Shown one piece after another: positions 15,805 through 63,390 of a DNA stretch of 64,000 bases. Both the position numbers and the translations under genes were made by a program. Below the pieces are notes generated by a model. That model was not told the origin of the DNA, ran no database searches, and saw nothing but the letters and a program-made list of their open reading frames with translations. Numbering within the stretch: position 1 is the stretch's first letter; each line of letters starts with the position of its first letter. This DNA comes from a virus (lineage: Duplodnaviria; Heunggongvirae; Uroviricota; Caudoviricetes), in the IMG/VR virus record IMGVR_UViG_3300010162_000009. One strand, given 5' to 3'.

Positions 15805-16262
15805 TGGGAAAACTCATAATATTTTTCACAACATTCACAATAATATTAACTGCATGTTTTAGGTTATTTAATATGCAGATAATATTTTCGGATATGTGGA
15901 TAGTAACACAGATAGTAGGGATATACCTGACTTTATCCTCTTTTTATTTTATATCTGCGTTTTGTTATAGATACATAGTAGAAACAGGAACTAAAGAATA
16001 TATAGGTTTCAGGTTATGGTTTATTTTTGGTATTCTATCAGGATTAATACCAATAGGTGGATTGTTTGTGGGAATAATAACATGGATAATTATAGGTGTC
16101 AACCTATTGTGTGAAGACTGGGGAAGTGAAAAATCAGGGTTTAGATTAGAACCGTTTTACAAATTCTATAAATTCATTAACATAAAGATAACTTCGGATA
16201 TGATCAGAAATTTTTTTAAAAATTTTATTAACCTTAAATTAATAAAAGTCAAAGTCAAATGA
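15804..16262 (+). CDS. Membrane protein, 152 aa (four TM segments).
   Basis: Hydrophobicity pattern. Confidence 0.45.
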   Translation: MGKLIIFFTTFTIILTACFRLFNMQIIFSDMWIVTQIVGIYLTLSSFYFISAFCYRYIVETGTKEYIGFRLWFIFGILSGLIPIGGLFVGIITWIIIGVNLLCEDWGSEKSGFRLEPFYKFYKFINIKITSDMIRNFFKNFINLKLIKVKVK

Positions 16263-25583: not shown

Positions 25584-25591
25584 TATAAATA
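25584..25591 (-). promoter_or_regulatory. ATAAATAG motif upstream of 25193-25567.
   Basis: Exact motif. Confidence 0.45.
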
Positions 25592-25622
25592 GAAATTTGT
25601 AATTATTTACTATCACAATTAA

Positions 25623-43234: not shown

Positions 43235-46200
43235 CTATTGAGAATCATTTCCTAAATAAATAGCACCATCCTTATCTACCGTAAATCCTGGTCCTAACTT
43301 AATCTTAATGGAATCACCTAAAGCTAACACTGGAAGAGAGATGGTGAAAATATCAAGGGTGGTACCGCTACTTCGTGGCATATATAACTTTCCATTGTAA
43401 ATTTGACTTGTGTTTCGAGTTATATTTGCAGGAATTGTTGTCGTGCGAGTAGTTTCTGTTACCAAATCAAAAATCTCAAGGGTGGCACCACCACCACTTT
43501 GTGGCATATATAACTTTCCGTTGAAAATTTGACACGTAAAACGCTGCATATGTGTAGGAAGTGTTACCGTGCGAGTGGTTTCTTCTTCCAAATCAAAAAT
43601 ATCAAGTGCGCTGCCACTATGTTGTGGCATATATAACTTTCCGTTGAAAATCTGACTTATCCATCGCTGCCTACTTGCAGGAAGCGTTATCGCACGACCA
43701 GTTTCCGTCACCAAATCAAAAATCTCAATGGTGGCACCACCACCACCTTGTAGCATATATAACTTTCCGTTGAAAATCTGACTTGTGTATCGCCACATAT
43801 TTGTAGGAAGTGTTACCGTGCGAGTAGTCTCTGTTACCAAATCAAAAATCTCAAGGGTGGTACCACCAGTTCCTGGTATATATAACTTTTCGTTGAAAAT
43901 TTGACTTGTGTCTCGTTCCATATCTGTAGGAAGCGTTACCGTGCGAGTTGTTTCCCTAACCAAATCAAAAATCTCAAGGGTGGTACCACCAGTTCCTGGT
44001 ATATATAACTTTTCGTTGAAAATTTGACTTGTTTTTCTACCCATATTGGGAACTGTTACCGTGCGAGTGGTTTCAGTTACCAAATCAAAAATATCAAGGG
44101 TAGTATTCCAATCACTTGGTATATATAACTTTCCGTTGAAAATTTGACTTGTTTGTCTCTGCATATTTGTAGGAAGTGTTACCGTGCGAGTAGTTTCTTC
44201 TCCATTGGTAATTTTAATATTTGGATAAGCAGGAAACCTTATTTCATTATTAACTTTTTCAACCTCTTGTCCACCAAGCATAATTTTCGGAATATCAGGA
44301 TATACCGGAAGGATAAACTCATTACCAACCTTCTCTACCGGAATACCTAAATCAAAAATCTCAAGAGCGGTACCACCATCTTGCGGCATATATAACTTTC
44401 CGTTGAAAAATTGACATGTAGCCTTCCATACAGATGTAGAAAGTGTTGCTGTGTATTCTTCTTCTGTTACCAAATCAAAAATCTCAAGGATATTACCACC
44501 ATCTGGTATATATAACTTTCCGTCGAAAATATGACTTGTTTGTCGTCCCATGTTTGTAGGAAGTTCTACCATGCGAGTAGTCTCTGACACCAAATCAAAA
44601 ATCTCAAGGGCGGTGCCATTATGTTGTGGTAGATATAACTTTCCGTTGAAAATCTGACTTGTTTGTCTCTGCATATTTGTAGGAAGTGTTACCGTGCGAG
44701 TGGTTTCCGCTATCAAATCAAAAATCTCAAGGGTATTACTACCATCTCGTGGCATATATAACTTTCCGTTGAAAATTTGACTTGTTCTTCGCCACATATT
44801 TGTAGGAAGTGTTACCGTGCGAGTAGTCTCTGTTACCAAATCAAAAATCTCAAGGGTGGTACCACTATATTGTGGTAGATATAACTTTCCGTTGAAAATC
44901 TGACTTGTTTGTCTCTGCATATTTGTAGGAAGTGTTACCGTGCGAGTAGTTTCAGTTACCAAATCAAAAATTTCGAGAGTGGTACCATTATCTCGTGGCA
45001 TATATAACTTTCTGTTGAAAATTTGGTTTGTTATTCGCCCCATACTTGTAGGAAGTGTAACCGTGCGAGTGGTTTCTGTAACCAAATCAAAAATCTCAAG
45101 GGTGGTATTCCAATTCCCAGACATATATAAATTTCCGTTGAAAATTTGACTAGTACGTCTCTGCATATTTGTAGGAAGTGTTACCGGGCGACCAGTTTCT
45201 GTACCAATTTTTACAGATGTATAAGGTGGAAATACTAATTTATCTCCTATCTTTTTTACATTATTTCCTACAATGTTAAAAATTTCAAGGTTTTTCCCAA
45301 AATTTTCTGGTATATATATTTTCTCATCGAAAATTTGAATTATACTTCGTTGCATGTTTCTAGAAAATCTTACCACGTGAGTAGTTTCTGTTACCAAATC
45401 AAAGATCTCGAGGATGGAATTCCCTGCCATATATAACTTTCCCTTGTAGATTTGACTTCCAGGACGATTCATGTTTGTAGGAAGTGTTACCGTGCGAGTA
45501 GTTTCTGTTACCAAATCAAAGATCTCGAGGGTTGTACCTTGCTCCTGTGGTATATATAACTTATCATCATAAATTTGACTTGTGTATCGCAGCATATCTG
45601 TAGGTAGTTCTACTGTTCGCATTTCTTCAGTGGTTAAATCAAATATTTCCATAGTTGTATAACCAGAACTTGGTATATATAATTTACCATCGTATAGTTG
45701 CCCAGTATATCTCAACACATCTGTTGGAAGGGTAATATATCGCGTTTCCTCGGTATTTAAATCAACAACTTCAAGTTTCACACCAGAACTTTCCGGTATA
45801 TATAACTTTTCGTTATATAAAAAACTTGTTAGTTTATTTGTCATCATGTCACTCAAACTAGGGAGTCCAATCATACTCACTTCTTCAGTTTTTAAATCAA
45901 ATACTTCAATCATTTGGTACATAACTGAAGGTATATATAACTTATCATTATAAATATGACTTGTAAGTCTTCCTATAGTTCCATTAAGATCTACTGTTCG
46001 CATTGTTTTAGAACTTAAATCAAATATTTCGAGAACAACACTACATAGTAAATATAATTTACCATTGTAAATTTGACTACCCAATCTCTGAAATTCAGTA
46101 GGAAGTTCTATTGTTTCTATTATTTCTATACTTTCTTCTCCAATACTAGCGAATTGTACTGCCGTGTCAATTTTCTCTAATTTTGCTTCATCTATTTCCG

Positions 46201-49200
46201 GAACTTTTGGATAAGGGGGGAAATATAACACATCACCCACTTTTTCTACTTCAATGTTAATATCATAAACCTCTAAATTTCCTTCACCTAAATTTTCTGG
46301 TATATATAATTTTCCTTCGTGAATATGAAATGAACTATCTCTATATGAATCTACTGGAAGTGTTACCACACGAGTTTTTTCAGTAGCAAAATCAAATATT
46401 TCAAGATTTGAACCATAACCACTTGGTATGTATAATTTTCCATTTAAAATGTTACATATAAAACGATCTGTTAAAATAGGAAGTTTTATTGTACGGATTT
46501 CTTCTGTGGTTAAATCAAAAATAACCATGTTTGTACCATTATTTTCTGGAACATATAACTTTCCATTATAAATTTTAAAAGTTTCATAGGTTATATTCGT
46601 AGGTAGTGTTACATATCGCACCTCCTCAGTAGTTAAATCAAAAATTTCAACGGTTTTATCATTCGATTCACCGCTCATCATATATAATTTTCCATCAAAA
46701 ATTTGAGATGTGTTTAACATATGTTTAACCATGGTAAGCGATACTGTGCGTGTTTCCTCTGTAGTTAAATCAAATATATCAAGACCATTATTATTACTTC
46801 GACGTATATATAACTTTCCGTTGAAAATTTGACTTGTCCTTCTAGAATTCCAACCATCAGGTAATGATACTGTGCGTGTAGTTTCAGTTACAAAATCAAA
46901 AATTTCAATAATATTCTGATTCAGACCTAACATATACAATTTATCATCATAAATTTGACTTGTTGCGCGTCCCATATCACTTGTAGGAAGTGATATGTTG
47001 TAAAATTCTTTGGTTTTTATATCAAATATATCCATTCTTGTACCCCAACCTTCAGGTATATACAACTTTTCGTTATAAATTTGACTTGTAAAACGGTTTA
47101 AAACAACAGGTATCTTGAATATTTCAGTATTATCTTTACCAATAAATGCGGTTATTTCCGGATAAGCAGGAAATACCAATTCCGTTCCATTTTTTTCTAT
47201 TGATGTGGTAATACTAAATATTTCAAGGGTGTTACCATTACCTTGTGGCATATATAACTTTCCGTTGAAAATATGACTTGTATGTCGCTGCATACTTGTA
47301 GGAAGCATTACCGTGCGAGTGGTCTCTGACACCAAATCAAAAATCTCAAGGGTGTTACCATTGTCTTGTGGTATATATAACTTTCCGTTGAAAATTTGAC
47401 TTGTAGAACGAGTCATAGATGATGTAGGAAGTGTTACCGTGTGGGTGGTTTCTGCCGTTAAATCAAAGATTTCGAGGGTTGTATTCCAATCTCCAGGTAT
47501 ATATAACTTTCCGTTATAAATTTGACTTGTACGTCGCTGCATACTTGTAGGAAGTATTACCGTGCGAGTGGTCTCTGACACCAAATCAAAAATCTCAAGG
47601 GTGTTACCATTCCATTGCGGCATATATAACTTTCCGTTGTAAATTTGACTTGTGATTCGCTCCATACTTGTAGGAAGTGCTACCGTGCGAGTAGTTTCCG
47701 TCAGAAAATCAAAAATCTCAAGGGTAGCACTACCACTTCCTAGTATATATAACTTTCCGTTGAAAATTTGGCTTGTTCTTCGCCACATATTTGTAGGAAG
47801 TGTTACCGTGCGAGTGGTCTCTGACACCAAATCAAAAATCTCAAGGGTAGCACTACCACTTCCTGGTATATATAACTTTCCGTTGAAAATTTGACTTATT
47901 AGTCGAGACATATTTGTAGTAGGAAGTGTTACTATACTTCTTTTACTTGTTAAATCAAATATTTCAATATTATTATATGTTGGTATATATAACTTTCCGT
48001 TATAAATCTGAGTTGCTGATCCCATTTCAATGGAATTTACCTCTATTGTTTCTATTTCTTCTTTAGAATATATAACCGCTGATTGTATAGAACTATCTGA
48101 TTTATTTCCTTGATCAGCGGTAGCAAACTGTGTTGTATCAATTTCCTCATAAGCAGGTAATTTAAATATAATATTAGTATCTGCAGTAGCAAGAGTTATA
48201 ATTTCAAGTGTATCATCCAAAGAAGGTGGTATATATAATTTTCCATTGTAAATTTGGCTAGTATATCTACCTATATCCGCCGGAAGTGTTTCAACATGTA
48301 CCTCTTCCGTTGCTAAATCAAATACTTCAAGTGTAGTATACCAATCTTGTGGTATATATAATTTTCCATTAAAAATTTGACTTGTGTATCGTTCAACATT
48401 AGAAAGAATAGGTAATACACGAGTAATTTCAGTGGCAAAATTAAAAATTTCAATGTTTACATTATTAGGACCTACCATATATAAATTTCCATTGTAAATT
48501 TGGCTAGTTGGTCTATCCATACTTGTTGGAAGCGTTACTGTACGAGTTGTTTCTGTAGTCAAATTAAAAATTTCAAGAGTGGTACCTCCGAATTCTGGCA
48601 TATATAATTCTCCATAGTAAATTTGACTAGTGCGTCTCTGCATACCTGTAGAAAGTGTTACTGTACGAGTTGTTTCTGTAGTTAAATCAAAAATCTCAAG
48701 GGTTGTGTCAACCCCACCCATCATATACAACTTCCCATCATAAATTTGACTCTCATATCTATTAGCTGGTTGTAGTGTTACTGTACGAGTTGTTTCTGTA
48801 GTTAAATCAAAAATCTCAAGGGTTGTTCCACTATGCTCCGGTAAATAAAGATTCCCATTATAAATTTGACTTGTAAAACGCATCATATTTGTTGGAAGTG
48901 TTACCGTGCGAGTAGTTTTTGTAGTTAAATCAAAAATATCAAGGGTATCACCGCTATCTTCTGGTATATATAATTTCCCATTATAAATTTGATTTGTACG
49001 ACGGGTCACGCTAGAAGGAAGTATTTCAGTATCAGTTATTAAATCTTCAAGTGAAATCCATTCACTGTTAGTTATTTTTTGAACAGGTTCATCACCAAGC
49101 ATTATTTCTATTTCAGGTACTTCAGGGTATTCAGGTAATTGTAATTCTGTACCAACTTTTGGGACAAATTCACCCCCAATACTTATTGTCTGAACAGCGG

Positions 49201-50005
49201 TATCAACCTTACCACCCTGTGTGTTAATCGCTGTCCACACGTCACTTAAATCCACGTTTGCGCTAAATTCCTTCCACTGGAAGTCAAAACGATAAAATGC
49301 GGTGTCACTATTTCTGTTATGCCATAAATCACCCAATGTTTCTGATACAGTCGGTTTGTTCACGCCTTCAATACCGTAGGTGGTGTTCGCCACAGAAGAC
49401 CATTCACCATCTTGAATTACATAACATGACCAGAATGTGTCAGCAACCAAATTTGACATGGTTTCTTGATTGTTAACATACCATAATGTTCCGTCACCGT
49501 ACATTTTATCTTCAGGGTTGTTACTCGGAGGTGTCTCCGACACCACCCCACGAAACGTAAAGAAACTGCTTCCCATTATGGACAACATTGTTTCCACCCA
49601 TGATTTTCCGGTGGTTTCTGTCCATTTTGTATTTACTTGTGATTGTAAATTGTTAAGACTTTCTTGTGTTGCGGCATTGTCTGCTTTAGCACCTTGTGCT
49701 GAAGTTGCAAACCCTTCGCTTCTGTCTTTAAATTCGTTAAAACTTGTTTGAGTCGGAGCACTATCTGCTTTAGCACCTTGAGCAGCAGTTGCAAACGCTG
49801 AAGCGTCTTGTAACGCTGTATCTGCTTTTGCACCTTGAGCAGCAGTTGCAAACTGCGATGGATCAATTTCTGGAACGTCTATATTATCTGGTATTGTGTC
49901 TACCATTTCAACAAGCACGTCTTGCAGCACGTTACCAGTAATTGCTTTGCTACTATTTTTGTATATCTTACCTTTGATATACGTTTTTAATTGATTTAGT
50001 GTCAT
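43235..50005 (-). CDS. Giant fibre or structural protein, 2256 aa. N-terminal ~290-aa module shared with 25623-28742, followed by about 45 tandem ~42-aa beta-propeller-like repeats (consensus TTRTVTLPTNMQRRTSQIFNGKLYIP...GTTLEIFDLVTE).
   Basis: Uninterrupted ORF. Repeats visible in the translation and at DNA level. Repeat pattern resembles YVTN/NHL-type propeller blades. Confidence 0.8.
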   Translation of the reverse strand: MTLNQLKTYIKGKIYKNSSKAITGNVLQDVLVEMVDTIPDNIDVPEIDPSQFATAAQGAKADTALQDASAFATAAQGAKADSAPTQTSFNEFKDRSEGFATSAQGAKADNAATQESLNNLQSQVNTKWTETTGKSWVETMLSIMGSSFFTFRGVVSETPPSNNPEDKMYGDGTLWYVNNQETMSNLVADTFWSCYVIQDGEWSSVANTTYGIEGVNKPTVSETLGDLWHNRNSDTAFYRFDFQWKEFSANVDLSDVWTAINTQGGKVDTAVQTISIGGEFVPKVGTELQLPEYPEVPEIEIMLGDEPVQKITNSEWISLEDLITDTEILPSSVTRRTNQIYNGKLYIPEDSGDTLDIFDLTTKTTRTVTLPTNMMRFTSQIYNGNLYLPEHSGTTLEIFDLTTETTRTVTLQPANRYESQIYDGKLYMMGGVDTTLEIFDLTTETTRTVTLSTGMQRRTSQIYYGELYMPEFGGTTLEIFNLTTETTRTVTLPTSMDRPTSQIYNGNLYMVGPNNVNIEIFNFATEITRVLPILSNVERYTSQIFNGKLYIPQDWYTTLEVFDLATEEVHVETLPADIGRYTSQIYNGKLYIPPSLDDTLEIITLATADTNIIFKLPAYEEIDTTQFATADQGNKSDSSIQSAVIYSKEEIETIEVNSIEMGSATQIYNGKLYIPTYNNIEIFDLTSKRSIVTLPTTNMSRLISQIFNGKLYIPGSGSATLEIFDLVSETTRTVTLPTNMWRRTSQIFNGKLYILGSGSATLEIFDFLTETTRTVALPTSMERITSQIYNGKLYMPQWNGNTLEIFDLVSETTRTVILPTSMQRRTSQIYNGKLYIPGDWNTTLEIFDLTAETTHTVTLPTSSMTRSTSQIFNGKLYIPQDNGNTLEIFDLVSETTRTVMLPTSMQRHTSHIFNGKLYMPQGNGNTLEIFSITTSIEKNGTELVFPAYPEITAFIGKDNTEIFKIPVVLNRFTSQIYNEKLYIPEGWGTRMDIFDIKTKEFYNISLPTSDMGRATSQIYDDKLYMLGLNQNIIEIFDFVTETTRTVSLPDGWNSRRTSQIFNGKLYIRRSNNNGLDIFDLTTEETRTVSLTMVKHMLNTSQIFDGKLYMMSGESNDKTVEIFDLTTEEVRYVTLPTNITYETFKIYNGKLYVPENNGTNMVIFDLTTEEIRTIKLPILTDRFICNILNGKLYIPSGYGSNLEIFDFATEKTRVVTLPVDSYRDSSFHIHEGKLYIPENLGEGNLEVYDINIEVEKVGDVLYFPPYPKVPEIDEAKLEKIDTAVQFASIGEESIEIIETIELPTEFQRLGSQIYNGKLYLLCSVVLEIFDLSSKTMRTVDLNGTIGRLTSHIYNDKLYIPSVMYQMIEVFDLKTEEVSMIGLPSLSDMMTNKLTSFLYNEKLYIPESSGVKLEVVDLNTEETRYITLPTDVLRYTGQLYDGKLYIPSSGYTTMEIFDLTTEEMRTVELPTDMLRYTSQIYDDKLYIPQEQGTTLEIFDLVTETTRTVTLPTNMNRPGSQIYKGKLYMAGNSILEIFDLVTETTHVVRFSRNMQRSIIQIFDEKIYIPENFGKNLEIFNIVGNNVKKIGDKLVFPPYTSVKIGTETGRPVTLPTNMQRRTSQIFNGNLYMSGNWNTTLEIFDLVTETTRTVTLPTSMGRITNQIFNRKLYMPRDNGTTLEIFDLVTETTRTVTLPTNMQRQTSQIFNGKLYLPQYSGTTLEIFDLVTETTRTVTLPTNMWRRTSQIFNGKLYMPRDGSNTLEIFDLIAETTRTVTLPTNMQRQTSQIFNGKLYLPQHNGTALEIFDLVSETTRMVELPTNMGRQTSHIFDGKLYIPDGGNILEIFDLVTEEEYTATLSTSVWKATCQFFNGKLYMPQDGGTALEIFDLGIPVEKVGNEFILPVYPDIPKIMLGGQEVEKVNNEIRFPAYPNIKITNGEETTRTVTLPTNMQRQTSQIFNGKLYIPSDWNTTLDIFDLVTETTRTVTVPNMGRKTSQIFNEKLYIPGTGGTTLEIFDLVRETTRTVTLPTDMERDTSQIFNEKLYIPGTGGTTLEIFDLVTETTRTVTLPTNMWRYTSQIFNGKLYMLQGGGGATIEIFDLVTETGRAITLPASRQRWISQIFNGKLYMPQHSGSALDIFDLEEETTRTVTLPTHMQRFTCQIFNGKLYMPQSGGGATLEIFDLVTETTRTTTIPANITRNTSQIYNGKLYMPRSSGTTLDIFTISLPVLALGDSIKIKLGPGFTVDKDGAIYLGNDSQ
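43300..49100 (-). repeat. Long array of ~126-129 bp intragenic tandem repeats with high DNA-level similarity.
   Basis: Recurrent accgtgcgagtagtttctgttaccaaatcaaaaatctcaagggtggtacc units across roughly 5.8 kb. Confidence 0.8.
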
Positions 50006-50020: not shown

Positions 50021-51832
50021 TTATTTGATTATTCCTAATACCTTATCAACTTTTTCAAAGATGATTTTCTTTTTATTGTCTACTGTTAATATATCGGCGT
50101 TTTCCATATATTGTCTTAAATTTGTAAAATCTTTATCCACCCAAGCACCTGGTGTTGAGGGGTCTGTGACCATATCCCAGCAAAGAAGTTCAAAATCATC
50201 TCCAACAATACCTATATTATTTTTTCCGGATTCTACTGAACCAACACCTCTTGAAGACACACCCATTTTAAGTCTATTGAAATAAATATTATTTGCAATA
50301 ATATCTCCGGGCGTGGAACAGATACCGTGTTTAACATATGCTGGTGATATTAATAATTCAAAATCACCTACCACAGTTTTTCCTTCCCACCAAAGTTTTA
50401 AAATATTCATGGAAATACCTTTGGTTGATATGATGGAACTCTCCGGGTGGTCTGAGTTATTAGTCCAGTGTGTCTTTCCATTACACATACAATACCATGT
50501 ATGATTTTTAACTTTAACACACATTACTTTACCCACATATTTTTCTTTTGTTATAGATAAATTTTTGTAAATGGATATGAATTTATTTAATGATTTATAA
50601 GTGAAAAACATATTACTACAATTTTCACCTTTTATTAATCTATCACCTATATATCTATCATATTTTCTATCTTCTTCTTTAAATGTTCCTGAATACCCTA
50701 TTTTTAATTGTATTTCATTTAAATCTAATACCAACCGTTTAGATGTTGAAAAAACATCATTTGAATTTACTCTTTTTCTACCATCACCTAAAACAAACCA
50801 ATCATATAATATGGTTAATAACTCTTTTGATAAGTTTTTTATTTCAAAAGGAATATATTTATCATAACATATACCTAATTTTGATAAGTATGTATGAAGT
50901 CGCGCATCGGTGATAAGAAATACGTTTTTTTCTCCTTCTTTACCACATTTAGTAAATGGTAAACCAAGTTCATTTAACATTGTTTCTATTTCATCAATTA
51001 CTTCTTTCTTTTTTTGGTGAATATAAATTCCATATCCTCTATTTTTTTCATTTCTTTTTGATGCGCTACCTTCTGAAAGATATATACCCATAAATGCCAT
51101 AAATGGTTTTATTGGTAATACAAGATCTTCATTTAATTGTTTTCTAAAATTTTCAGATATATTAAAGTGAGGTTCCTTATTCAATTTAGGTATAATAAAA
51201 AATTCTTCGTCAGTTTTTTTCATCCATTTTCCTTGTTTTAAAAAATGACAATGATTTTGATCTGGTATCATACTATCATACAAATCTTGTGCTGAAAAAT
51301 TTCCTTTATATTTATGGTATCTATCCCATATTGGATAATTGTGATTAGGTGTAACAAGATCGTTGATATGCCTACCTTTTATTCTAATCATATCACCATT
51401 ATGATCAAACACAGGTTTTTCTTCAATAGGATTTATTTCTATTTCCTCTGTTTCAGTGTTGAGTGTTAAAATATTTTCACCAACTTCAACATCTTCAAGT
51501 GTTTTCCAACCGGTTTCGGTTAATATCATTGTATCAGGTGTATAACATTCTCCATATGCTCTTCTTTCTCTGATTTTTACGTTATATTTTTCTACTTCTC
51601 GTTCCAATATTCTTCTAGGATATATTCTACCGTTGGCATTTGGGGTATCGCATTTTTGAAAAACAGCATGTAATACATAAGGAAATGGAATATACCATTC
51701 TTCACTTACCTTACCTTCAAATAACATCTTATCTTCTTTTGGGAGAACATATCCATCATTTTCAAATAGAAATCCGTATCCGTATTTTCCACGTTTTACC
51801 TCTTGTAAATTCTGAACATCTTTTACTTTCAT
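50021..51832 (-). CDS. Prohead core protease (T4 gp21-like) interrupted by an intein. The spliced host protein would be ~239 aa.
   Basis: Exteins: GRIYPRRILEREVEKY..RAYGE / SDHPESS...GVSSRGVGSV. These match the gp21 blocks (KRLYPKRILEKAVKDY...LGELNHP...GVSSRGLGSL) as I recall them. ATAAATAG 19 bp upstream. Confidence 0.8.
   Translation of the reverse strand: MKVKDVQNLQEVKRGKYGYGFLFENDGYVLPKEDKMLFEGKVSEEWYIPFPYVLHAVFQKCDTPNANGRIYPRRILEREVEKYNVKIRERRAYGECYTPDTMILTETGWKTLEDVEVGENILTLNTETEEIEINPIEEKPVFDHNGDMIRIKGRHINDLVTPNHNYPIWDRYHKYKGNFSAQDLYDSMIPDQNHCHFLKQGKWMKKTDEEFFIIPKLNKEPHFNISENFRKQLNEDLVLPIKPFMAFMGIYLSEGSASKRNEKNRGYGIYIHQKKKEVIDEIETMLNELGLPFTKCGKEGEKNVFLITDARLHTYLSKLGICYDKYIPFEIKNLSKELLTILYDWFVLGDGRKRVNSNDVFSTSKRLVLDLNEIQLKIGYSGTFKEEDRKYDRYIGDRLIKGENCSNMFFTYKSLNKFISIYKNLSITKEKYVGKVMCVKVKNHTWYCMCNGKTHWTNNSDHPESSIISTKGISMNILKLWWEGKTVVGDFELLISPAYVKHGICSTPGDIIANNIYFNRLKMGVSSRGVGSVESGKNNIGIVGDDFELLCWDMVTDPSTPGAWVDKDFTNLRQYMENADILTVDNKKKIIFEKVDKVLGIIK
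50456..51547 (-). mobile_element. Intein (~364 aa) with a LAGLIDADG homing-endonuclease domain, inserted between GE and SDHP of the protease.
   Basis: Block A CYTPDTMILTETG; block B TPNHNY; LAGLIDADG-like FMGIYLSEGSAS and WFVLGDGRKR; C-terminal ...THWTNN followed by a Ser +1 residue. Confidence 0.75.
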
Positions 51833-51850: not shown

Positions 51851-51858
51851 ATAAATAG
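51851..51858 (-). promoter_or_regulatory. ATAAATAG motif upstream of the protease-fibre operon.
   Basis: Exact motif. Confidence 0.5.
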
Positions 51859-54715: not shown

Positions 54716-55648
54716 ATGGAACAACAATATTTGGATATGATGCGACGTATCCTCGATATGGGTGATTACAAAAGCGCAGCAAGGGAGAATTTACCGGGAA
54801 CAAAAGAGATATTTGTTCAAATGATTAGACACGATTTACAGAAAGGATTTCCGTTGCTTACAACGAGAGAAATGCCCATTAGAGGAACATTTGAAGAACT
54901 GAAATGGTTTTTGAAAGGGAGTACAGATGTTAGAGAACTTATTCGTAATAAGTGCAACTTTTGGAGTGAAGATGTGTATAAATTCAATAAGAAAGGATAT
55001 GACAAATTTCCCGATTATGATCTTTGGTTGGAAGTAATAAAAAACACTGAAACAGAATCTTCACATACGGATGCTGGTGAATTATACGGAAAACTGTGGC
55101 GAAACTTCAATGGTGATACTGACCAAATATGTAATTTAGTCAATAGGATATTGAAAGAACCAAATTCTCGTTATCAAATAGTATCGGCATGGAATCCTTC
55201 GGTAGTATCTCGTGGTTTAAGCGCATTACCTTCTTGTCATATGATATGGCAAACAAATGTAAGAGAAGGAAAATATTTGGATTTGGTTATGATGCAAAGA
55301 TCATGTGATATTCCTATCGGTGTACCGGTTAATATTGCAAGTTACGCTTTATTAATCCACATATTATGCTTAATATTACCATACTATCCTGGTGAACTTA
55401 TATGGATAGGTAACAGCGCACATATCTACGAAAATCAGTTTGAAACATGTGAAGAACAGTTAAGTAGAACACCAAGAGAATTACCACAACTTAATATAAA
55501 ACTACGTCCATACATTCAAAATACTTGGGTATCAGAAGAACTAACAGATTTTTTTGATTCATTAAGGTTTGAAGATATTGAACTTATCAATTACAATCCT
55601 CACCCAAAACTCAAATACACTTTTTCAAGTGGGTTAATCAAAAAATAA
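54716..55648 (+). CDS. thyA: Thymidylate synthase (ThyA-type).
   Basis: Active-site LPSCH; QRSCDIPIGVPVNIASYALL with the Asp and Asn typical of dUMP-specific enzymes; YGKLWR. Confidence 0.85.
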   Translation: MEQQYLDMMRRILDMGDYKSAARENLPGTKEIFVQMIRHDLQKGFPLLTTREMPIRGTFEELKWFLKGSTDVRELIRNKCNFWSEDVYKFNKKGYDKFPDYDLWLEVIKNTETESSHTDAGELYGKLWRNFNGDTDQICNLVNRILKEPNSRYQIVSAWNPSVVSRGLSALPSCHMIWQTNVREGKYLDLVMMQRSCDIPIGVPVNIASYALLIHILCLILPYYPGELIWIGNSAHIYENQFETCEEQLSRTPRELPQLNIKLRPYIQNTWVSEELTDFFDSLRFEDIELINYNPHPKLKYTFSSGLIKK

Positions 55649-56174: not shown

Positions 56175-57569
56175 TTATTTTTTCTTGCGGTAGTTTCTGA
56201 TTGTTTTTTGAATTTTGTCTTGAGCAGCCGCTTCGTTTAATGAAGCACCACCAACCGCTTTTTTAGGTGAATACTCCCATAACCTTTTCATATTATCAAA
56301 ACTATTTTTTAGTTTTTCTGGGTTTTTATATTCAAGTATAAAAGATTGATTGTAGTTATCGCACTCCATTAAATATTCGTTACCTGCTTTGTCAACCATA
56401 ACAAACTTATTACCGGGTGTTTTATATTGTTCTGGAATTAAACTTTTAACATGATTTTCATTAAGGAAAACTGTTTTGTTAAATTTTAAACGTTTTATTT
56501 TGTTTTCATTTTTCTTTTCATCTCCGATACCAAGAGTATCATTAACTTTATCACCAACAGCGTCACCAACCTTTTGACCTGCTGCTGTTGAAGCGGTCAT
56601 AGCAGCGTTTGTTCCAGCGTCTACGGCGACTTGTTTTGCTATATCTTTACAACTTTGTGTACCTGCGGTTTTCGCAGCACTACCAGCGGCTGTCTTACCA
56701 GCAGTTCTTGCAGCAGTACCAGCCGCCGCTTTACCTGCTGCCGCCCTACCAGCTGCGCCAACTACCGCACCAATGACTTCATTAACTTCTTCATTGACTT
56801 CACCTTCCGCTTCGCCTTTATTTTTATTCCTATTCATTAATGCCGATGCACCTATACCAGCGGCATTAACCGCGATAGGTATAAGAGGAACAACTTCATT
56901 AAGTAACTGTGAATTCCCCCTAACCATTTTATTTTCATTCACCACCTTTTTGAATGTTGGTACCGCCAAAGAGTATTTTTTACCACTTTCGTCTACAAAA
57001 TTAATTCGAGTTTTATCCTCATTTAATCCTACAACTGTAAGTTTAATATTATTCTTTGATTCTACAAAGACATCACCTTTTTTCACTTTACTTTCGTCTG
57101 TTGAGAATTTAGGGGTTTTGGTTTGCTGTGTAATCCTAGTGTTTATTTGTGTAGTTCCCATAATATTTGCATATCCTTTATTATCATTTTGCATTTTATC
57201 CCAGAAACCTTTGTTTCCTTTTATAGAAATACCACCAGATGTTTCATCATCAATATCCGGTTGGTCTGGTGAAGATTTACCTTGAACAAGTGCTTTTACC
57301 CTATCTTGATATTTCTTGTCAATAGAATCATAATTTAAGTTCAATGCGTTTCTTCCATAGGGTTGGTTTTCTCCCCTGTAACCTTTGATTTCAGTAGAAT
57401 TACCTTCAGGAGTAGAATCTTTTATACGTTCTTCACCATCCTTCTTAGCATCTTTACTATCATTTTCATTTTCTGATCTAATATTAGTAAAAAGTTTTCC
57501 GTTTGTTGAATCACTTTCTGCTGCTTCATTAATCAGTTTTCCTAACTCTGCTAAATTTACCATAGCCAT
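56175..57569 (-). CDS. Gly/Ala-rich protein, 464 aa; permuted paralog of 23328-25145; candidate virion-internal protein.
   Basis: Shared segments with 23328-25145; ATAAATAG 30 bp upstream. Confidence 0.55.
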   Translation of the reverse strand: MAMVNLAELGKLINEAAESDSTNGKLFTNIRSENENDSKDAKKDGEERIKDSTPEGNSTEIKGYRGENQPYGRNALNLNYDSIDKKYQDRVKALVQGKSSPDQPDIDDETSGGISIKGNKGFWDKMQNDNKGYANIMGTTQINTRITQQTKTPKFSTDESKVKKGDVFVESKNNIKLTVVGLNEDKTRINFVDESGKKYSLAVPTFKKVVNENKMVRGNSQLLNEVVPLIPIAVNAAGIGASALMNRNKNKGEAEGEVNEEVNEVIGAVVGAAGRAAAGKAAAGTAARTAGKTAAGSAAKTAGTQSCKDIAKQVAVDAGTNAAMTASTAAGQKVGDAVGDKVNDTLGIGDEKKNENKIKRLKFNKTVFLNENHVKSLIPEQYKTPGNKFVMVDKAGNEYLMECDNYNQSFILEYKNPEKLKNSFDNMKRLWEYSPKKAVGGASLNEAAAQDKIQKTIRNYRKKK

Positions 57570-57598: not shown

Positions 57599-57606
57599 AT
57601 AAATAG
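57599..57606 (-). promoter_or_regulatory. ATAAATAG motif upstream of 56175-57569.
   Basis: Exact motif. Confidence 0.45.
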
Positions 57607-57630: not shown

Positions 57631-57666
57631 AAACAAAAAAACACACCTGTAAAAACAAGTGTGTTA
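57631..57666 (-). terminator. Terminator for 57695-57983 (acacac/gtgtgt stem with a T-run on the minus strand).
   Basis: Hairpin plus an A-run on the plus strand. Confidence 0.5.
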
Positions 57667-57694: not shown

Positions 57695-57983
57695 TTAGGG
57701 ATTTTCATCATCATCCTCTTCGTCGTCTTCGATATCAACGTCGAATACAATTTCGTCGCTCAGAATTACTGGGCTGCTACAAGCAACTACTAAAACCTCT
57801 TTCGTGGTTGTACCACAACGGTTAGTCAGTTTGAACACGCATGGAAATTCTCCATATTCGGTAGGTTCTCCATACAACTCACCAGTTGCCGTATCTAATT
57901 GCACACCTGCGGGTAGCGGTCCTTCAACCAGTTCCCATAAACCGGTTGACCCTTTGTAAAGTATCTGTTTCCTTTCTTCCATC
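57695..57983 (-). CDS. Small Ig-like (BIG/He_PIG-type) domain protein with an acidic tail.
   Basis: LPAGVQLDTATGELYGEPTE motif. The track start at 58021 is a TTG that abuts the promoter motif, so the start was moved to the ATG at 57983 (MEERKQ). Confidence 0.45.
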
Positions 57984-58023
57984 TTACTTATTTTTTTTAT
58001 TACGTTATTATTTAATTCCAATA

Positions 58024-58031
58024 ATAAATAG
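58024..58031 (-). promoter_or_regulatory. ATAAATAG motif upstream of 57695-57983.
   Basis: Exact motif. Confidence 0.4.
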
Positions 58032-58084: not shown

Positions 58085-60421
58085 CTACATTTTTCTAATT
58101 GGTATTCTGAACACTAAATGAGTTCCGTATCCAAGTTCAGATTGAACAGTAATAGAACCACCCAACATTTCAACAATTTGTTTTGTGATATAAAGTCCCA
58201 TTCCTGTTCCACCATATCTAATTCTATCCTGTGCATTGATTTGATTAAACCTATCAAAGATAATCTTCAATTTATCTTCAGGGATACCAATACCAGTGTC
58301 TTCAACGGTGAACACTAACATATCAGATTCTATTTCATATCCAAATTTAACATATCCGCTTTCAGTAAATTTCACTGCATTTCCGATAACATTATTCAGA
58401 ATTTGACGTACCCTTGTAACATCTGAATCAATGATACATGGATAGATTGAATTGGAAGTATCAAACACGACTTCTAATCTCTTATCCTTGGTTTTGATAA
58501 AACTATTAAATGATAGTTCCATTTCCTGTAAAATGATATTAATATCAAATTCTGTATGATTTATTGAAAGACTATTGGATTCTATTTTAGCAACGTCTAC
58601 AATATCATTAATCAATTGTAAAAGTTGTTGTGTGCTGCTCCTGACAATCCTTGAATATTCCTTACGCGTTTCCGGATCAATATGGTTTGAATCAATGAAG
58701 TCAAGGAAACCAAGAATACCGTTCATAGGTGTACGTATCTCATGCGACATGTTAGTGAGGAATGAAGATTTCAATTGATTTGCTTCCTCAGCTTTCATTC
58801 TTGCTTTTATCAAATGATTTGTTTGTTCAGTAACCCTGTCTTCCAAACTATCCTTCAACTTGATAAGTTCATCATTCAAATTAAGTAATTTCTTGTTTGT
58901 GTTTCTAATCATGAATAGAAGGAACAATACTATTACAACTGCAATGACAACTATATAGATAATATATTTTCGATATAATAGTTCTTGCTTTTGTGCTGCT
59001 ATTTGCGCTCTCGCTTCAAATAGACTTTGTTCAAAAGTATATTGTGCCGTTACTTGTTGAATATTAAACTTCTCTGTTTCTGTTTTTATTGAATCATTAA
59101 TGGCGTATGCTTGTCTAAGATATTTTATGGCAACAGAGTATTTAGATTTTTCAAAATTAATATCTGATAATATATGTAGAATTTCAGATTTCTTCTGTTT
59201 TAATCCCCTACCTGTTATCAAATCCAAAGCGGTAGTAAAAATTCTATCAGCATCATTCAATTCACTTTTTGAAAAGTAATAATTTCCAAGATAGTAATAC
59301 GCATCAATCAAGTGTATAACAGAATTTGATGCGCGAGCATATTCAATAGCATTTTTATAATATCTTAATTTATCTCTATCGTAGTTACTTCTCAACCCAA
59401 GATTAATATAAATTGTTGATAGTGCAGATGATTTAGGATTATTTTCTTCATATACCCTTATCAATTCATTTAATATTTTAACTACATCACTGTTATTTTT
59501 ATAATATCCTGATATCGCAAGATTGTGCATTACCCTTGCATATTGTAAATTTTCACCAAGAGTTTTGTATATTTCAGCAGACTTGTTATAATATTTATAA
59601 ACACTATCAATCTCACCAAGACCCTTATAAACACTACCGATTAAATCATATATATCTGCTTCGTTGTGTCTATCACCAATCATTTTTGAATGTTCAACCG
59701 CTTTTTCAGCACTTTCAATAGCGTGTTGTGTGTCACTTATGTACGTTAGTATTATCAATGAAATTTTATATCCCGCAATAATATTTTCAGTATTACCAAT
59801 TTCTTCCCATATCAAAATTGCTCTTCTTATCGCTTCAAAAGATTCATATAAACGACCCTGATAACGATAAACAAGTGATAAATTGTAATAATTACGAGCA
59901 AGACATTCCATCTCACCAAGTTTCATACATATATTTATTGAAGCATTAAACATTTCTATCGCCTCATTGTATTCACCTTTCAAATAGTGAATCGTACCGG
60001 TTGTTCTATACAAATCAGAAATACCCCTTTCAAAATTTATAACGTATGCAAGAGTTAATCCGCGTTGAAGAACATCCATCGCCTCAGAATATCTGCGTTC
60101 TACAATTAATTTACGTGCCGAATCACCAGACGCAATTACACGCATCTCATCCTCTGTATCCGTTGGTCTCGATATATTTTCATTAGACTTATTAATAAGA
60201 GGGAAAATAGAAATACCCCTATCCTTACTGATAATATAACCAACAGTAGAACCAACCCGGTCAGTATATTTAATGGCACTATATTCGTTTTGTTCAATTT
60301 GATTATTACTTAAACTACTATAATCTAATAGAACATCTAATTCACTATTAGATTGTGATATCGCAGGTAATAGATTGAACAATACTAATATAACTACCAA
60401 AACTATGTGTTTTTTTGTCAT
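58085..60421 (-). CDS. Sensor histidine kinase with an N-terminal signal peptide, TPR-repeat sensor region, one TM segment, HisKA and HATPase_c domains; no receiver domain.
   Basis: MSHEIRTPMNGI H-box; N/G1/G2 boxes (NAVKFT, DTGIGI, GGTGMGL); TPR-like repeats in the N-terminal 460 aa; ATAAATAG 19 bp upstream. Confidence 0.85.
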   Translation of the reverse strand: MTKKHIVLVVILVLFNLLPAISQSNSELDVLLDYSSLSNNQIEQNEYSAIKYTDRVGSTVGYIISKDRGISIFPLINKSNENISRPTDTEDEMRVIASGDSARKLIVERRYSEAMDVLQRGLTLAYVINFERGISDLYRTTGTIHYLKGEYNEAIEMFNASINICMKLGEMECLARNYYNLSLVYRYQGRLYESFEAIRRAILIWEEIGNTENIIAGYKISLIILTYISDTQHAIESAEKAVEHSKMIGDRHNEADIYDLIGSVYKGLGEIDSVYKYYNKSAEIYKTLGENLQYARVMHNLAISGYYKNNSDVVKILNELIRVYEENNPKSSALSTIYINLGLRSNYDRDKLRYYKNAIEYARASNSVIHLIDAYYYLGNYYFSKSELNDADRIFTTALDLITGRGLKQKKSEILHILSDINFEKSKYSVAIKYLRQAYAINDSIKTETEKFNIQQVTAQYTFEQSLFEARAQIAAQKQELLYRKYIIYIVVIAVVIVLFLLFMIRNTNKKLLNLNDELIKLKDSLEDRVTEQTNHLIKARMKAEEANQLKSSFLTNMSHEIRTPMNGILGFLDFIDSNHIDPETRKEYSRIVRSSTQQLLQLINDIVDVAKIESNSLSINHTEFDINIILQEMELSFNSFIKTKDKRLEVVFDTSNSIYPCIIDSDVTRVRQILNNVIGNAVKFTESGYVKFGYEIESDMLVFTVEDTGIGIPEDKLKIIFDRFNQINAQDRIRYGGTGMGLYITKQIVEMLGGSITVQSELGYGTHLVFRIPIRKM

Positions 60422-60439: not shown

Positions 60440-60447
60440 ATAAATAG
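60440..60447 (-). promoter_or_regulatory. ATAAATAG motif upstream of the histidine kinase gene.
   Basis: Exact motif. Confidence 0.45.
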
Positions 60448-60519
60448 GTCTTAATTTTTAAACAAAAAATCAATTATCTTTTCAAATAATTGATTTATAA
60501 ACATATAAATAATATAAAA

Positions 60520-60560
60520 AATCATAAAAAAATACCATCCAAATTTTTTTGAATGGTATT
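60520..60560 (-). terminator. Rho-independent terminator downstream of 60799-62040 (ataccat/atggtat stem with a T-run on the minus strand).
   Basis: Hairpin plus an A-run on the plus strand. Confidence 0.55.
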
Positions 60561-60798
60561 TTAATAAAAGTGTATTTTACTTAAACATAGTCGAAAAAAT
60601 ATGAAGTCCTTTTAATAACACATCCTTTCAGACATTCAGAGGTCTCTTTTCAAATACACTTATTAATTTACTTATGATTTTCCGCAAAAATACCCCTTGG
60701 GTGTTTTTTTGGAAATTGACGCTTCAACGGGTTCGTAACCTCTTCCCTCCACGTCCTCTTCCCCTCTCATCGAAGGTGTTTTATATTTTGAATTGACC

Positions 60799-62040
60799 TT
60801 ACTTCTTTTGAGATGCTTCTTTGGCAATGTCCATCAACATTTTCAAACCTACGGCATCCATAGCGGTATTTACATTACTACCACTTCCACCACCGCCCAA
60901 ATACATTACACCCGGAACAATAGGAACTTGAATCCCAGCAATATTTTTTGAAACAACGTCTGCTATTCTGATCTCCATTTCCATCCGTTGTTGCGGGGTT
61001 AAACCAGCCTGTACTAATAGACGGTTTGCTTCCGCTTCTGCACGTTTTTCTTGGATAATCTTATCAGCAACGAATTTAGCTTGATCTGCTTCTAATCTAG
61101 CAACGTCTCTTGCTTGTTCCGCTTTTGTTACTTCTACCGCTTTGATTGCTTCCTGTTCCCACCTTCTTGTGGCAGCAGTCGCTTTACCTTGTTCTTCCGC
61201 CTTAATAGCGTTTTGACGAGCTTCCATTGACTGCGCCAGGGCTGTTTGAATTTGCATATTTGCTTGCTGTTGAGCAGCAATTTGGTTAATTACAGTTTCG
61301 TCATAACGGATATTTGAAATAGCAAGTTGACTAATTTCAAGTCCGTAATAACTAAACGGTGATACTTCTTGTCGTGCCAAACCACCGGGTGCATTTTCGT
61401 CTCTGATAACATCAGCAACCCTAACAACTTTTTCTTGTTGAGTTAATTCGTCAAATACACGCTGTTCGGTTGTTCGGGTACGATACACACCGTTGTTTAA
61501 CTGGTCGGTTATATACAGAATAAGGTCATTCTTCTTTGCTGCGTAAGATTCAAACGCTGACATCAAAGGACCTGATGCAAATACCGCCTTGACCGTTGTT
61601 GGTCTAATTAGATCATTCATTAGTCGGTTCATTCCCGCATAATCCGTATGTATCCTTTGCAGATACTGCGTTTCCAGCGGTAACTTAACTCGCAAACTAC
61701 CTGATATGCGACCCTTACTACCGTCATTGAATACGATAGGGATATCAAGGTCTATGGGTTTTTCACCACCCTCACCTTCTTCATCGGAGAACCATAACTG
61801 GCGTGTTTTGTCATATTCGGTAATTCTACCAAACAACTGCCATTGAAACCCCGGTGACACCCAATACGCCATTTTCCCTGTGAAAGGGTATTGGTTAACT
61901 ACTATTTTCTCATTATTCACATCTTCACCCATCTTGGCGAATGCAAAAATAAAGAAAACTCCTATTAGCAACGCTAATACTACATACACTTGCTTTTTTG
62001 TAATTTCTAACATTTTAATACAATTTTTAAGGTTTAACAA
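60799..62040 (-). CDS. SPFH/band-7 family protein (HflK/HflC-like) with an N-terminal TM anchor.
   Basis: N-terminal TM segment; central band-7 region; C-terminal Ala/Gln/Glu-rich coiled coil (QQQANMQIQTALAQSMEARQ...). Confidence 0.65.
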   Translation of the reverse strand: MLNLKNCIKMLEITKKQVYVVLALLIGVFFIFAFAKMGEDVNNEKIVVNQYPFTGKMAYWVSPGFQWQLFGRITEYDKTRQLWFSDEEGEGGEKPIDLDIPIVFNDGSKGRISGSLRVKLPLETQYLQRIHTDYAGMNRLMNDLIRPTTVKAVFASGPLMSAFESYAAKKNDLILYITDQLNNGVYRTRTTEQRVFDELTQQEKVVRVADVIRDENAPGGLARQEVSPFSYYGLEISQLAISNIRYDETVINQIAAQQQANMQIQTALAQSMEARQNAIKAEEQGKATAATRRWEQEAIKAVEVTKAEQARDVARLEADQAKFVADKIIQEKRAEAEANRLLVQAGLTPQQRMEMEIRIADVVSKNIAGIQVPIVPGVMYLGGGGSGSNVNTAMDAVGLKMLMDIAKEASQKK

Positions 62041-62282: not shown

Positions 62283-62450
62283 TTATTCATTACGAATAAA
62301 TTCCGTTTCTTCCCACCACCAATCAATAAGACCATGAAGATATTCTTGTGCTGTTTCTTCTATTTCTTCTTTTGTGGCATCGTCTTCTACTTCAAACCAA
62401 TCTTCTTCAGTCGTTCTTCCAAGTCTGACTGTTACTCTAACTGTTTTCAT
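62283..62450 (-). CDS. Small acidic Trp-rich protein (~55 aa, ...LIDWWWEETE...).
   Basis: Manual ORF overlapping the upstream stop by 14 nt. Confidence 0.25.
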   Translation of the reverse strand: MKTVRVTVRLGRTTEEDWFEVEDDATKEEIEETAQEYLHGLIDWWWEETEFIRNE

Positions 62451-63390
62451 TCTTTTTAATTTTTTTAATTTCTTCTATTAATGGAAACAACACTTCCATT
62501 AAAGGAATATTTTCAATATTATGTAACTCTATTGGAAAAAAACCGGATTTTAGGGGTTTATCAAGATTTACAAATCCTCCCATCCAATCATTTTGGAAAC
62601 CGGTCATTACCAACCCTGTTTTTGTTGAAAGCGGTAACACTCTTTTAGATTGTTCGTATGACCAACCCTGTGTACTAACAAGATTGGTATAATGAATTCT
62701 ACTTTGAGAAAGAGAATGTAAAAATTCAAGTTTTGCCATTTCTTCCGTATATGGTACAATCTTTCCAACATAACTTTGATGCCTTTTATGAAGGTCTTTA
62801 CAATCACAATCTTCTTCTTGAATATCTAATCCCGAAATAACATATGAAATATTATTCGTATTTGATTTTTCATGTGCAAATGAAAACGCTCGGTGTTTCA
62901 TGAAATTCATTGCTGTAATCATATCACAAACAAAGTAGACTGATATTCTTGGTTCATGATATTGTCCTGGTACACAAAGATATTGTAAATCCTCTGTCCA
63001 TTTGTTTTCAATTATCACACGATAGTTTGTTGAAATAGAATATACGTGTGGAGATACATCGTCATGGTAGTCGACAATGGTGTAAGGATTGCCCCAATAC
63101 TTATCCACATCACAATCATCTTCCTGTGTTATATCAAGATAAACTGCACCATGTTCTAACATAGAAAAATCATTTTTGTTAATCAACATATTAACAAATT
63201 TATCAGCACCACCATAGGGGTCGTAACAACACATTCTACCAACTATTTCGATTTCCTTGAATATGTTATTTAACAAAATATCGTTACCAACGTCACGAGG
63301 GTCTGGTCCATTAGTGACATCCCACGTCTTTATGTGTGGTAAAAATATCTGTTCTGTTAGAACTTTTGCACTTGGTTTTTCAACTTTCAT
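62437..63390 (-). CDS. Divergent ThyX-like (flavin-dependent thymidylate synthase fold) protein, 317 aa.
   Basis: Segments LEHGAVY, FM-KHR-AFSFAHEKS and EQSKRVLPLSTKTGLV parallel the ThyX FEH, RHR-x7-S and ARxxLP..T.T blocks. The canonical S-x-R-Y Arg is absent and RHR reads KHR. Confidence 0.45.
   Translation of the reverse strand: MKVEKPSAKVLTEQIFLPHIKTWDVTNGPDPRDVGNDILLNNIFKEIEIVGRMCCYDPYGGADKFVNMLINKNDFSMLEHGAVYLDITQEDDCDVDKYWGNPYTIVDYHDDVSPHVYSISTNYRVIIENKWTEDLQYLCVPGQYHEPRISVYFVCDMITAMNFMKHRAFSFAHEKSNTNNISYVISGLDIQEEDCDCKDLHKRHQSYVGKIVPYTEEMAKLEFLHSLSQSRIHYTNLVSTQGWSYEQSKRVLPLSTKTGLVMTGFQNDWMGGFVNLDKPLKSGFFPIELHNIENIPLMEVLFPLIEEIKKIKKNENS

Follow-up and report, generated by a model that had tools for sequence, protein, structure and literature searches.

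Why does a tailed phage carry a sensor histidine kinase, and whose response regulator would that kinase address? The question is raised by the IMG/VR record IMGVR_UViG_3300010162_000009 (Caudoviricetes), of which a stretch of 64,000 nucleotides, hereafter called the window, was analysed. Near one end of the window lies a gene for a 778-aa protein that combines an array of tetratricopeptide repeats (TPRs) with the HisKA and HATPase_c domains of a two-component kinase (coordinates are given in Table 1). How phages read or rewrite host signalling is a subject of current interest (examples are VqmA-type quorum receptors, arbitrium, and the agr genes of phage phiCDHM1); canonical two-component kinases in virulent-type jumbo phages are hardly discussed in the literature that we searched. 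The best explanation overall, to which we give about an even chance, is that the gene specifies a predicted functional orphan class I sensor histidine kinase, which is owned by the phage and kept by selection. A first-pass annotation, made from the sequence alone, had proposed that such a kinase could hijack a host response regulator, and we regard this as plausible.

The architecture described in that annotation, namely a 778-aa open reading frame (ORF) with an internal transmembrane helix, HisKA, and a complete HATPase_c, is borne out by ORF calling, Pfam, and hydropathy analysis. HisKA (residues 551–615) scores 62.6 bits against a Pfam cutoff of 26.9, and HATPase_c (residues 667–776) scores 96.3 bits over profile positions 2–110 of 111. 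The H-box reads SHEIRTP and contains the phospho-acceptor His560 (codon 58742–58744); the N-box consists of N677 and N681, G1 is DTGIG at 708–712 (D708, G710, and G712), the F-box is FDRF at 722–725 (F722 and F725), and G2 is GTGMGL at 738–743 (G738, G740, and G742). Degeneracy of the catalytic histidine or the G-boxes had been named as a reason to doubt the kinase; in an alignment with nine relatives (alignment A1) they are intact, and His560, Asn681, the G1 residues, Phe722, and the G2 glycines are invariant. In other words, an H-box histidine in DHp and a GHKL domain with all four boxes place the protein, by sequence, among the class I (HisKA-type) kinases. The H-E-x-x-T motif, whose phosphatase role is established for HisKA kinases, is also kept (H560, E561, and T564). 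The polypeptide stops two residues past HATPase_c, and neither Pfam nor a receiver scan found a fused receiver or HPt domain in it. A single-residue variant of the kinase, V593G, exists.

In the sensor half, Pfam TPR families extend across approximately residues 110–450 (TPR_12 in six stretches, plus TPR_2, TPR_8, and TPR_1). The AlphaFold model based on alignment A1 (mean predicted local distance difference test score, 73.7) contains 16 confident helices at residues 99–424, which form eight TPR-like pairs; the TPR array is therefore present, and the earlier estimate of about 10 repeats was slightly generous. Residues 1–103 are modelled with low confidence, and an insertion of approximately 65 aa that is not seen in the relatives in alignment A1 lies in the low-confidence N-terminal part of the sensor. 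A single long helix (residues 428–501) passes through the membrane and is followed by the DHp hairpin and an alpha/beta CA domain. The modelled core superposes on HK853 (target TM-score 0.84–0.86, root-mean-square deviation 2.6–2.8 Å), and the modelled TPR region resembles the peptide-binding 8-TPR superhelix of LGN/Pins (TM-score approximately 0.69). Because of the charges that flank the two hydrophobic segments (KK before the first and RNTNKK after the second), the TPR region of 460 residues is predicted to be periplasmic and the kinase cytoplasmic, whether or not the first segment is cleaved.

Does the gene really belong to the phage? The phage, which comes from uncultured bacteria, is of the T4-like jumbo type, and its longest matching contig, in ENA (ERZ27257297 k141_148294), is 268,981 bp long; a further contig (ERZ27257304 k141_684241) measures 180,245 bp. 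The window encodes a T4-type portal, an S77 prohead protease, a tail tube protein, a tail fibre, and homing endonucleases, together with ThyA, a ThyX-like protein, and seven tRNAs. The closest named relatives of the portal, at approximately 35% identity, are in Microcystis phage Mel-JY01 and the Flavobacterium “immuto” phages, and a match at a similar level occurs in LR756508, a 484-kb metagenomic phage. On one flank of the kinase are an SPFH/Band_7 gene, the ThyX-like gene, and then, beyond the window, an HNH endonuclease gene; on the other flank are an Ig-like He_PIG gene, the gene for a 464-aa protein, ThyA, and the protease. The exact kinase protein was found on seven contigs (ENA, Logan, and JGI; several samples), which are 99.98–100% identical to the window in nucleotide sequence and carry identical neighbours throughout. 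With phage genes on both sides, and with the nearest homologues outside the phage lineage being cellular, the gene presents itself as a host-derived accessory (moron or auxiliary) gene of the phage. The G+C content of the kinase gene is 0.31, and its value at third codon positions (GC3) is 0.23, compared with a GC3 range of 0.18–0.33 for the phage genes; the gene thus appears to have taken on the phage base composition since its capture.

The alternative that the kinase sits in host DNA, the window being a prophage junction or a chimeric assembly, is barely credible. What can be said for it is that the ENA contig of 269 kb differs from the window by a repeat-joined segment of 21 kb. That contig joins window position 49787 straight to 28476, omitting approximately 21.3 kb, and the skipped segment is bounded by repeats common to the gene for a 2256-aa protein (43235–50005) and the tail fibre gene (25623–28742); the difference may represent true structural variation or a misassembly caused by the repeats, and assemblies of this phage are thus not without flaws. 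Against this alternative, phage-type genes preceded by a phage-wide motif (see below) stand on both flanks of the kinase, and the same join recurs in independent ENA, Logan, and JGI assemblies. No integrase or host housekeeping gene was found among the window ORFs scanned against Pfam or PHROGs, or among the called genes of the overlapping loci. Because a phage-type Band_7 gene flanks it, the kinase is not at a phage–host junction. A prophage boundary, with the kinase outside the phage, was the danger that the first-pass annotation had itself pointed out; the phage genes on both flanks, the seven contigs, and an orthologue in a second phage, close to the prohead protease gene, instead place the kinase within the phage.

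This orthologue is found on a contig of 4.8 kb with a G+C content of 0.28 (L099; sample ERZ27245258), which carries a 360-aa kinase (P0124), a He_PIG homologue (70% identical), a homologue of the 464-aa protein (53%), a small gene, and the S77 protease gene (61–76%), in that order. The kinase gene is 2.2 kb from the prohead protease gene. We take L099, from this gene order, to be a second, related phage with an orthologous kinase at the same position. The P0124 core is 65% identical to that of the window kinase, and the stretch comprising the linker and DHp is more similar (71%) than the CA domain (60%). The ORF of P0124 is complete, with stop codons upstream and a copy of the motif 17 nt before its ATG. 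Its two membrane segments are just approximately 55 residues apart and the TPR domain is gone, and all the ATP-binding boxes are conserved in both phage kinases. The ratio of nonsynonymous to synonymous substitution rates (dN/dS) for the phage cores is approximately 0.2 with the NG86 method and 0.36 with LWL85, at a dS of 1.3. By these measures, the catalytic core is kept under purifying selection, and the sensor is lost in one lineage.

Where did the kinase come from? An early word-index search presented it as an almost isolated protein, with a nearest match of 27%; this was an artefact, in which common kinase words swamped the candidates, and an exhaustive HMMER search raised the values to 41% (bacterial relative) and 65% (phage orthologue). 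The closest bacterial relative (P0121/P0270, 779 aa) shares 41% identity with the phage kinase along the full length. The gene for P0270 is flanked by asnS and an IS1-like transposase gene; its contig has a G+C content of 0.39 and comes from the same sample (ERZ27257297) as the 268,981-bp phage contig. P0270 belongs to a large, uncharacterised bacterial TPR(-PAS)-HisKA-HATPase family (P0270, P0121, P0123, and P0272–P0309), the members of which are known from metagenomes alone. Identity between the phage kinase and this family is 36–41% over the full length, 51–56% in the core, and 30–35% in the sensor. The bacterial genes are chromosomal, with asnS, galactokinase, glycoamylase, and AsmA neighbours and a G+C content of approximately 0.39–0.41; most of the proteins are approximately 900 aa long and have an additional PAS_3 domain. 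The genes are arranged in tandem, five paralogues to an array, and lack a neighbouring regulator; the more distant Bacteroidales relatives are likewise orphans or hybrids. In one uncultured bacterium, five consecutive TPR-PAS-HisKA-HATPase paralogues lie between the galactokinase and glycoamylase genes (L095, 4533–18324; L096, 387–14178), just downstream of a Y_Y_Y kinase gene, again with no regulator nearby. It should also be mentioned that in three relatives (P0310–P0312) the TPR sensor is the same but is joined to a SpoIIE phosphatase domain.

Scans of genome_contigs (185,579 species) and JGI metagenomes returned core matches of no more than 47%, from many phyla, and thus no closer donor, and they contained no copy of this phage; a search with the sensor domain alone returned just the cluster of the query itself. 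A neighbour-joining tree of the cores groups the phage kinases as sisters in 100 of 100 bootstraps and places them beside the bacterial family, and the clade joining the phage kinases, the TPR-kinase family, and P0002 has 80% bootstrap support. From these relationships we infer a single capture from the TPR-kinase family before the two phages diverged. Whether the acquisition was recent or ancient had been left by the first reading to the phylogeny of the kinase domain; the evidence points to an ancient one, predating the split of two phages whose cores are 65% identical.

These observations bear on the possibility that the gene is a neutral passenger, acquired as a piece of host DNA and irrelevant to infection. 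Genes of host origin are, after all, numerous in jumbo phages. However, the position of the kinase gene is kept in two phages at 65% core identity with the low dN/dS given above, the catalytic boxes are intact, the base composition is phage-like, and in each of the two phages the gene is preceded by a motif copy of its own. A recent capture is also contradicted by the low identity (41%) of the nearest bacterial relative. The passenger explanation is therefore disfavoured, and we consider it very improbable.

If the gene is kept by the phage, when would it be expressed? The motif reads CTATTTAT in the orientation of the kinase gene and ATAAATAG on the plus strand, and its near end is 19 nt upstream of the kinase ATG (-19 to -26). 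The first-pass annotation had noticed a motif 19 bp upstream of the gene; it is real and enriched, and only its orientation had to be corrected. The window contains 22 copies of ATAAATAG, as against 6.83 ± 2.75 expected, a number not attained in any of 100 shuffles. In the direction of the genes, the motif is usually CTATTTATA/T. Twenty of the 22 copies are no more than 65 nt upstream of a co-oriented ORF, and the motif precedes 19 genes, among them those for the portal, prohead protease, tail tube, tail fibre, and kinase (site examples are 3543–3550, 25585–25592, 51851–51858, and 60440–60447). A block of small plus-strand genes at 9–20 kb is without it. In L099, the motif stands before all four plus-strand genes (at 91, 1248, 1770, and 3416), including the kinase gene. 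In T4-like phages, the genes for portal, protease, tail tube, and fibre belong to the late class, and because the motif precedes such structural genes it is probably a late, or middle-to-late, promoter element. As to the suggested expression from the phage programme, the motif is indeed phage-wide, close to genes, and common to the structural genes, and its position makes it a candidate promoter.

The T4-type late promoter TATAAATA was considered as an identity for the motif and not accepted, since the gene-oriented motif corresponds to the reverse complement of that sequence. A consensus scan for sigma-70 promoters gave 20 sites, at the chance level of 20.5. One copy of the motif occurs 24 nt before the bacterial homologue in L094, beside a Bacteroidota-type TAnnTTTG box, and may be there by chance. 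The kinase would start its own transcription unit, because a terminator-like hairpin, detected by pattern match, separates the Band_7 gene from the kinase promoter region (Table 1). Between this hairpin and the kinase motif there is also an inverted repeat composed almost entirely of A and T, which has too few G–C pairs for the terminator scan.

We now turn to the partner. To search for response regulators, a receiver hidden Markov model (HMM) was built from CheY, Spo0F, PhoB, OmpR, and NtrC and run on six-frame translations; as a positive control, it recovered 63 of 120 kinase homologues carrying receivers. The scan covered the window, 3.6 kb beyond its right end (L002), and 8.9 kb beyond its left end (L260), which amounts to 76.6 kb or approximately 28% of the genome of approximately 269 kb. 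No receiver domain was found in these 76.6 kb, where the best E-values (4.6–4.8) are noise, and hence no nearby receiver gene that would make up a complete two-component system with the kinase. The earlier statement that no response regulator is encoded near the kinase agrees with this result. It should be stressed that a missing adjacent regulator is by itself no argument for hijacking, because the bacterial relatives normally also lack one.

The main rival explanation follows directly from the extent of the scan: a phage-encoded regulator may lie elsewhere in the genome, in which case a full two-component system would read a periplasmic cue and control phage genes, e.g., those for lysis timing. 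The kinases on other viral contigs lend this explanation some weight. A two-pattern scan confirmed at least 112 IMG/VR stretches encoding kinase cores that are 30–43% identical to that of the window kinase (L100–L179), many of them on low-G+C contigs of 100–676 kb and in giant-virus bins, the viral status of individual contigs being taken as listed in IMG/VR. Kinases on large viral contigs look common and under-described. Fourteen of the 16 cores examined are fused to a receiver. In addition, a distantly related contig of 314,837 bp that shares a Band_7 homologue with the phage (IMGVR_UViG_3300044712_000810; L140, the same contig as L009) encodes a 512-aa kinase and, immediately after it, a single-domain receiver of 143 aa; another receiver is encoded 5 kb away (9227–11194 and 15585–16016); this pair appears, from its gene content, to be a complete phage-borne two-component system. 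However, the L140 kinase has a non-TPR extracytoplasmic domain and is not orthologous, its core being 38% identical to that of the window kinase, compared with 51–56% for the bacterial family. Around the window kinase, the receiver-free stretch extends for 58 kb in one direction and 7 kb in the other, the 3.6 kb downstream of the kinase in L099 are likewise free of receivers, and the bacterial ancestors of the kinase are orphans too. On balance, we judge a phage-encoded partner to be rather unlikely.

Returning to the preferred explanation, a phage-owned orphan kinase, we can outline how it might work. The ancestor of both phages would have captured a TPR kinase of the host lineage once, and the gene would now be transcribed from the phage CTATTTAT element alongside the structural (late) genes. 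The product would insert into the host inner membrane, autophosphorylate on His560, and pass the phosphoryl group to a response regulator, or remove it from one via the retained E/T phosphatase motif. The regulator would most likely be host-encoded, i.e., the usual target of the homologous host kinases, themselves tandem-array orphans. The periplasmic TPR groove may bind a peptide or protein ligand that tunes the kinase activity, and in the TPR-less relative the kinase would act with no ligand input. Taking this one step further, we tentatively speculate that the phage kinase adds a late input to a host network in which orphan TPR-kinase paralogues converge on a shared regulator, and so reprograms the timing of lysis or a response of the envelope or surface (e.g., in the expression of receptors, capsule, or fimbriae). 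Such an input would be ligand-gated in this phage and constitutive in its TPR-less relative. This network model is possible, with the balance of probability leaning against it.

It is also conceivable that the kinase does not activate a host pathway but interferes with one, acting mainly as a phosphatase on a host regulator or forming mixed dimers with host TPR kinases, and thereby silencing an envelope or defence response. Retention of the H-E-x-x-T motif would fit such a role. So would the pattern of conservation, in that the two phage kinases agree best in the DHp dimerisation helices, which are also close to those of the bacterial family; the sensor-less L099 version could be a natural constitutive interferer. 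On the other hand, RetS-like decoys typically lose their ATP-binding boxes, which would be dispensable for a protein acting purely as a phosphatase or decoy, and both phage kinases retain all of these boxes. Interference of this kind seems to us unlikely.

Several points must be set against the orphan-kinase explanation as well. No partner regulator was found in the approximately 28% of the genome that was scanned, and the L140 pair indicates that phages can carry their own partners. The DHp specificity positions (N567, G571, and F572) are common to the whole subfamily and point to no particular regulator, and the co-occurrence of P0270 with the phage in one sample is only a circumstantial pointer to the host. 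The timing of expression, like the promoter function, is deduced from sequence position. A dS of 1.3 is near saturation, which makes the dN/dS values rough. Finally, the loss of the TPR domain in L099 means that the gene can be retained for reasons that do not require ligand sensing.

Table 1. Coordinates of the kinase gene, its parts, and the surrounding features in the window
Feature	Position	Strand	Evidence or remark
TPR sensor histidine kinase P0001, complete coding sequence, 778 aa	58085..60421	-	ORF call and Pfam
N-terminal hydrophobic segment, aa 5–24, signal peptide or first transmembrane segment, preceded by KK	60350..60409	-	Kyte–Doolittle scan
Predicted periplasmic sensor, aa 25–484, with ~8 confident TPR pairs at aa 99–424	58970..60349	-	Pfam, AlphaFold
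Transmembrane helix 2, aa 485–507, followed by cytoplasmic-side RNTNKK	58901..58969	-	Hydropathy peak 3.55
Helical linker from membrane to DHp, aa 508–550	58772..58900	-	AlphaFold helix 520–576; kept in L099 orthologue
HisKA/DHp, aa 551–615, with His560 and E561/T564	58577..58771	-	Pfam, motif positions, alignment A1
HATPase_c, aa 667–776, with N, G1, F, and G2 boxes	58094..58423	-	Pfam, motif positions
Phage-wide motif, candidate late promoter element	60440..60447	-	ATAAATAG on plus strand, CTATTTAT in gene orientation
Near-all-A/T inverted repeat (AAATCAATTAT, 8-nt loop, ATAATTGATTT, then T run)	60467–60496	-	
Terminator-like hairpin (15 pairs and T run) between Band_7 gene and kinase promoter region	60529..60562	-	Consensus pattern match
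SPFH/Band_7 membrane protein, upstream	60799..62013	-	Pfam Band_7; phrog_11908; homologues on four IMG/VR contigs
Small Ig-like He_PIG protein with acidic tail, downstream	57695..58021	-	Pfam He_PIG; own CTATTTAT at 58024–58031
Terminator-like hairpin after He_PIG gene	57640–57665		Consensus pattern scan
464-aa protein of unassigned function	56175..57569	-	Motif at 57599–57606; 53% identical homologue in L099, syntenic

Among the neighbouring genes, the one for the He_PIG protein directly follows the kinase gene in both phages, and its synteny is thus conserved like that of the gene for the 464-aa protein. The latter has no Pfam, PHROG, or PADLOC match. Against the PADLOC defence models, the kinase matches just one generic TPR model (33 bits), and the neighbouring genes match none. 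In the four distant jumbo contigs that share the Band_7 homologue, there is no kinase within 10 kb of that gene and no wider synteny. Scans of IMG/VR with the whole kinase, the 464-aa neighbour, a 634-aa neighbour, and P0121 found nothing.

Further observations concern the phage itself. The S77 prohead protease (603 aa; 50021–51832, minus strand) has Hint and LAGLIDADG segments in its middle according to Pfam, and its L099 orthologue, of 239 aa, matches just the two ends; the middle looks like an intein with a homing endonuclease inside the window protease. At least three HNH/homing endonuclease genes are interspersed with structural and other genes (2071–3552 and 20244–21266, both on the plus strand, and L002 2355–3698), one of them directly upstream of the portal gene. 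In the cluster of seven tRNA genes, one of 75 nt with anticodon TCA (6925–6999, plus strand) is labelled SeC by ARAGORN and could be an opal (UGA) suppressor; the long window ORFs read normally in translation table 11, so any UGA recoding would be elsewhere or limited. Thymidylate synthase ThyA is encoded at 54716–55648 (plus strand) and the ThyX-like protein at 62437–63390 (minus strand). The latter scores just below the Pfam Thy1 cutoff (24.0 versus 24.8 bits), and its gene has a short 82% nucleotide match to ThyX of the crAss-like phage cr271_1 from pig faeces.

What would it mean to find the partner? If it is a host regulator, this locus would show clearly how a lytic phage can add a sensor to a phosphorelay of its host; if it is encoded by the phage, the kinase would be a phage-owned environmental sensor. 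Either outcome would help to explain why kinase cores recur on more than 100 IMG/VR contigs. The system is a good experimental case, since it offers an intact kinase, a natural sensor-less orthologue, a defined bacterial source family, and a candidate late promoter.

How does this kinase compare with known systems? In architecture, it resembles FimS of Porphyromonas gingivalis, a member of the Bacteroidota, the periplasmic domain of which has approximately eight TPR motifs, with the signal unknown and a peptide ligand suspected (PMC11053733). In both proteins, two membrane segments flank a periplasmic multi-TPR domain that is followed by HisKA and HATPase_c, and no element of the Bacteroidota-type TPR sensor kinases is missing from the phage protein. 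Identity with FimS as an equivalog is ruled out, because the phage kinase scores only 122.9 bits against a cutoff of 600 with the FimS model (NCBIfam NF053520) and matches it in three stretches. FimS is chromosomal and works with FimR on fimbriae, whereas the phage kinase has the extra N-terminal insertion of approximately 65 aa and no known regulator. The closest likeness is to the bacterial TPR(-PAS) kinase family, which has the same domain order and, like the phage gene, no adjacent regulator.

The best named matches of the kinase core are the TorS model (237 bits), the BarA model (194 bits), and the GacS structure 7z8n (E=1e-43), and the H-box SHEIRTPMNGI is shared with kinases of the BarA/GacS, TorS, ArcB, LuxQ, and RcsC type. 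Unlike hybrids such as BarA, TorS, and LuxQ, the phage kinase has no receiver or HPt domain, its sensor is different, and its scores are far below the NCBIfam cutoffs. The other viral kinases in IMG/VR differ in being mostly fused to a receiver or beside a receiver gene, and in having no TPR sensor. We found no dedicated study in the literature on phage histidine kinases or two-component systems, or on huge or jumbo phages; a comparative survey of jumbo phages mentions only divergent receiver domains unconnected to kinases (PMC7824862). The nearest precedent is the AgrC homologue of phage phiCDHM1 of Clostridioides difficile, a host-derived kinase in a phage that encodes no response regulator; its authors proposed that it signals through a host regulator (PMC3901668). 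That protein belongs to a different family (AgrC/HPK10) with a polytopic membrane sensor; it is carried by a temperate Firmicutes phage, is encoded with agrB and agrD, and is 61% identical to the host gene. The kinase described here has no signal-synthesis gene beside it and has diverged far more deeply from its bacterial relatives. Phage-borne orphan kinases were, in other words, already known, and the present one adds a further, well-supported example to a known kind.

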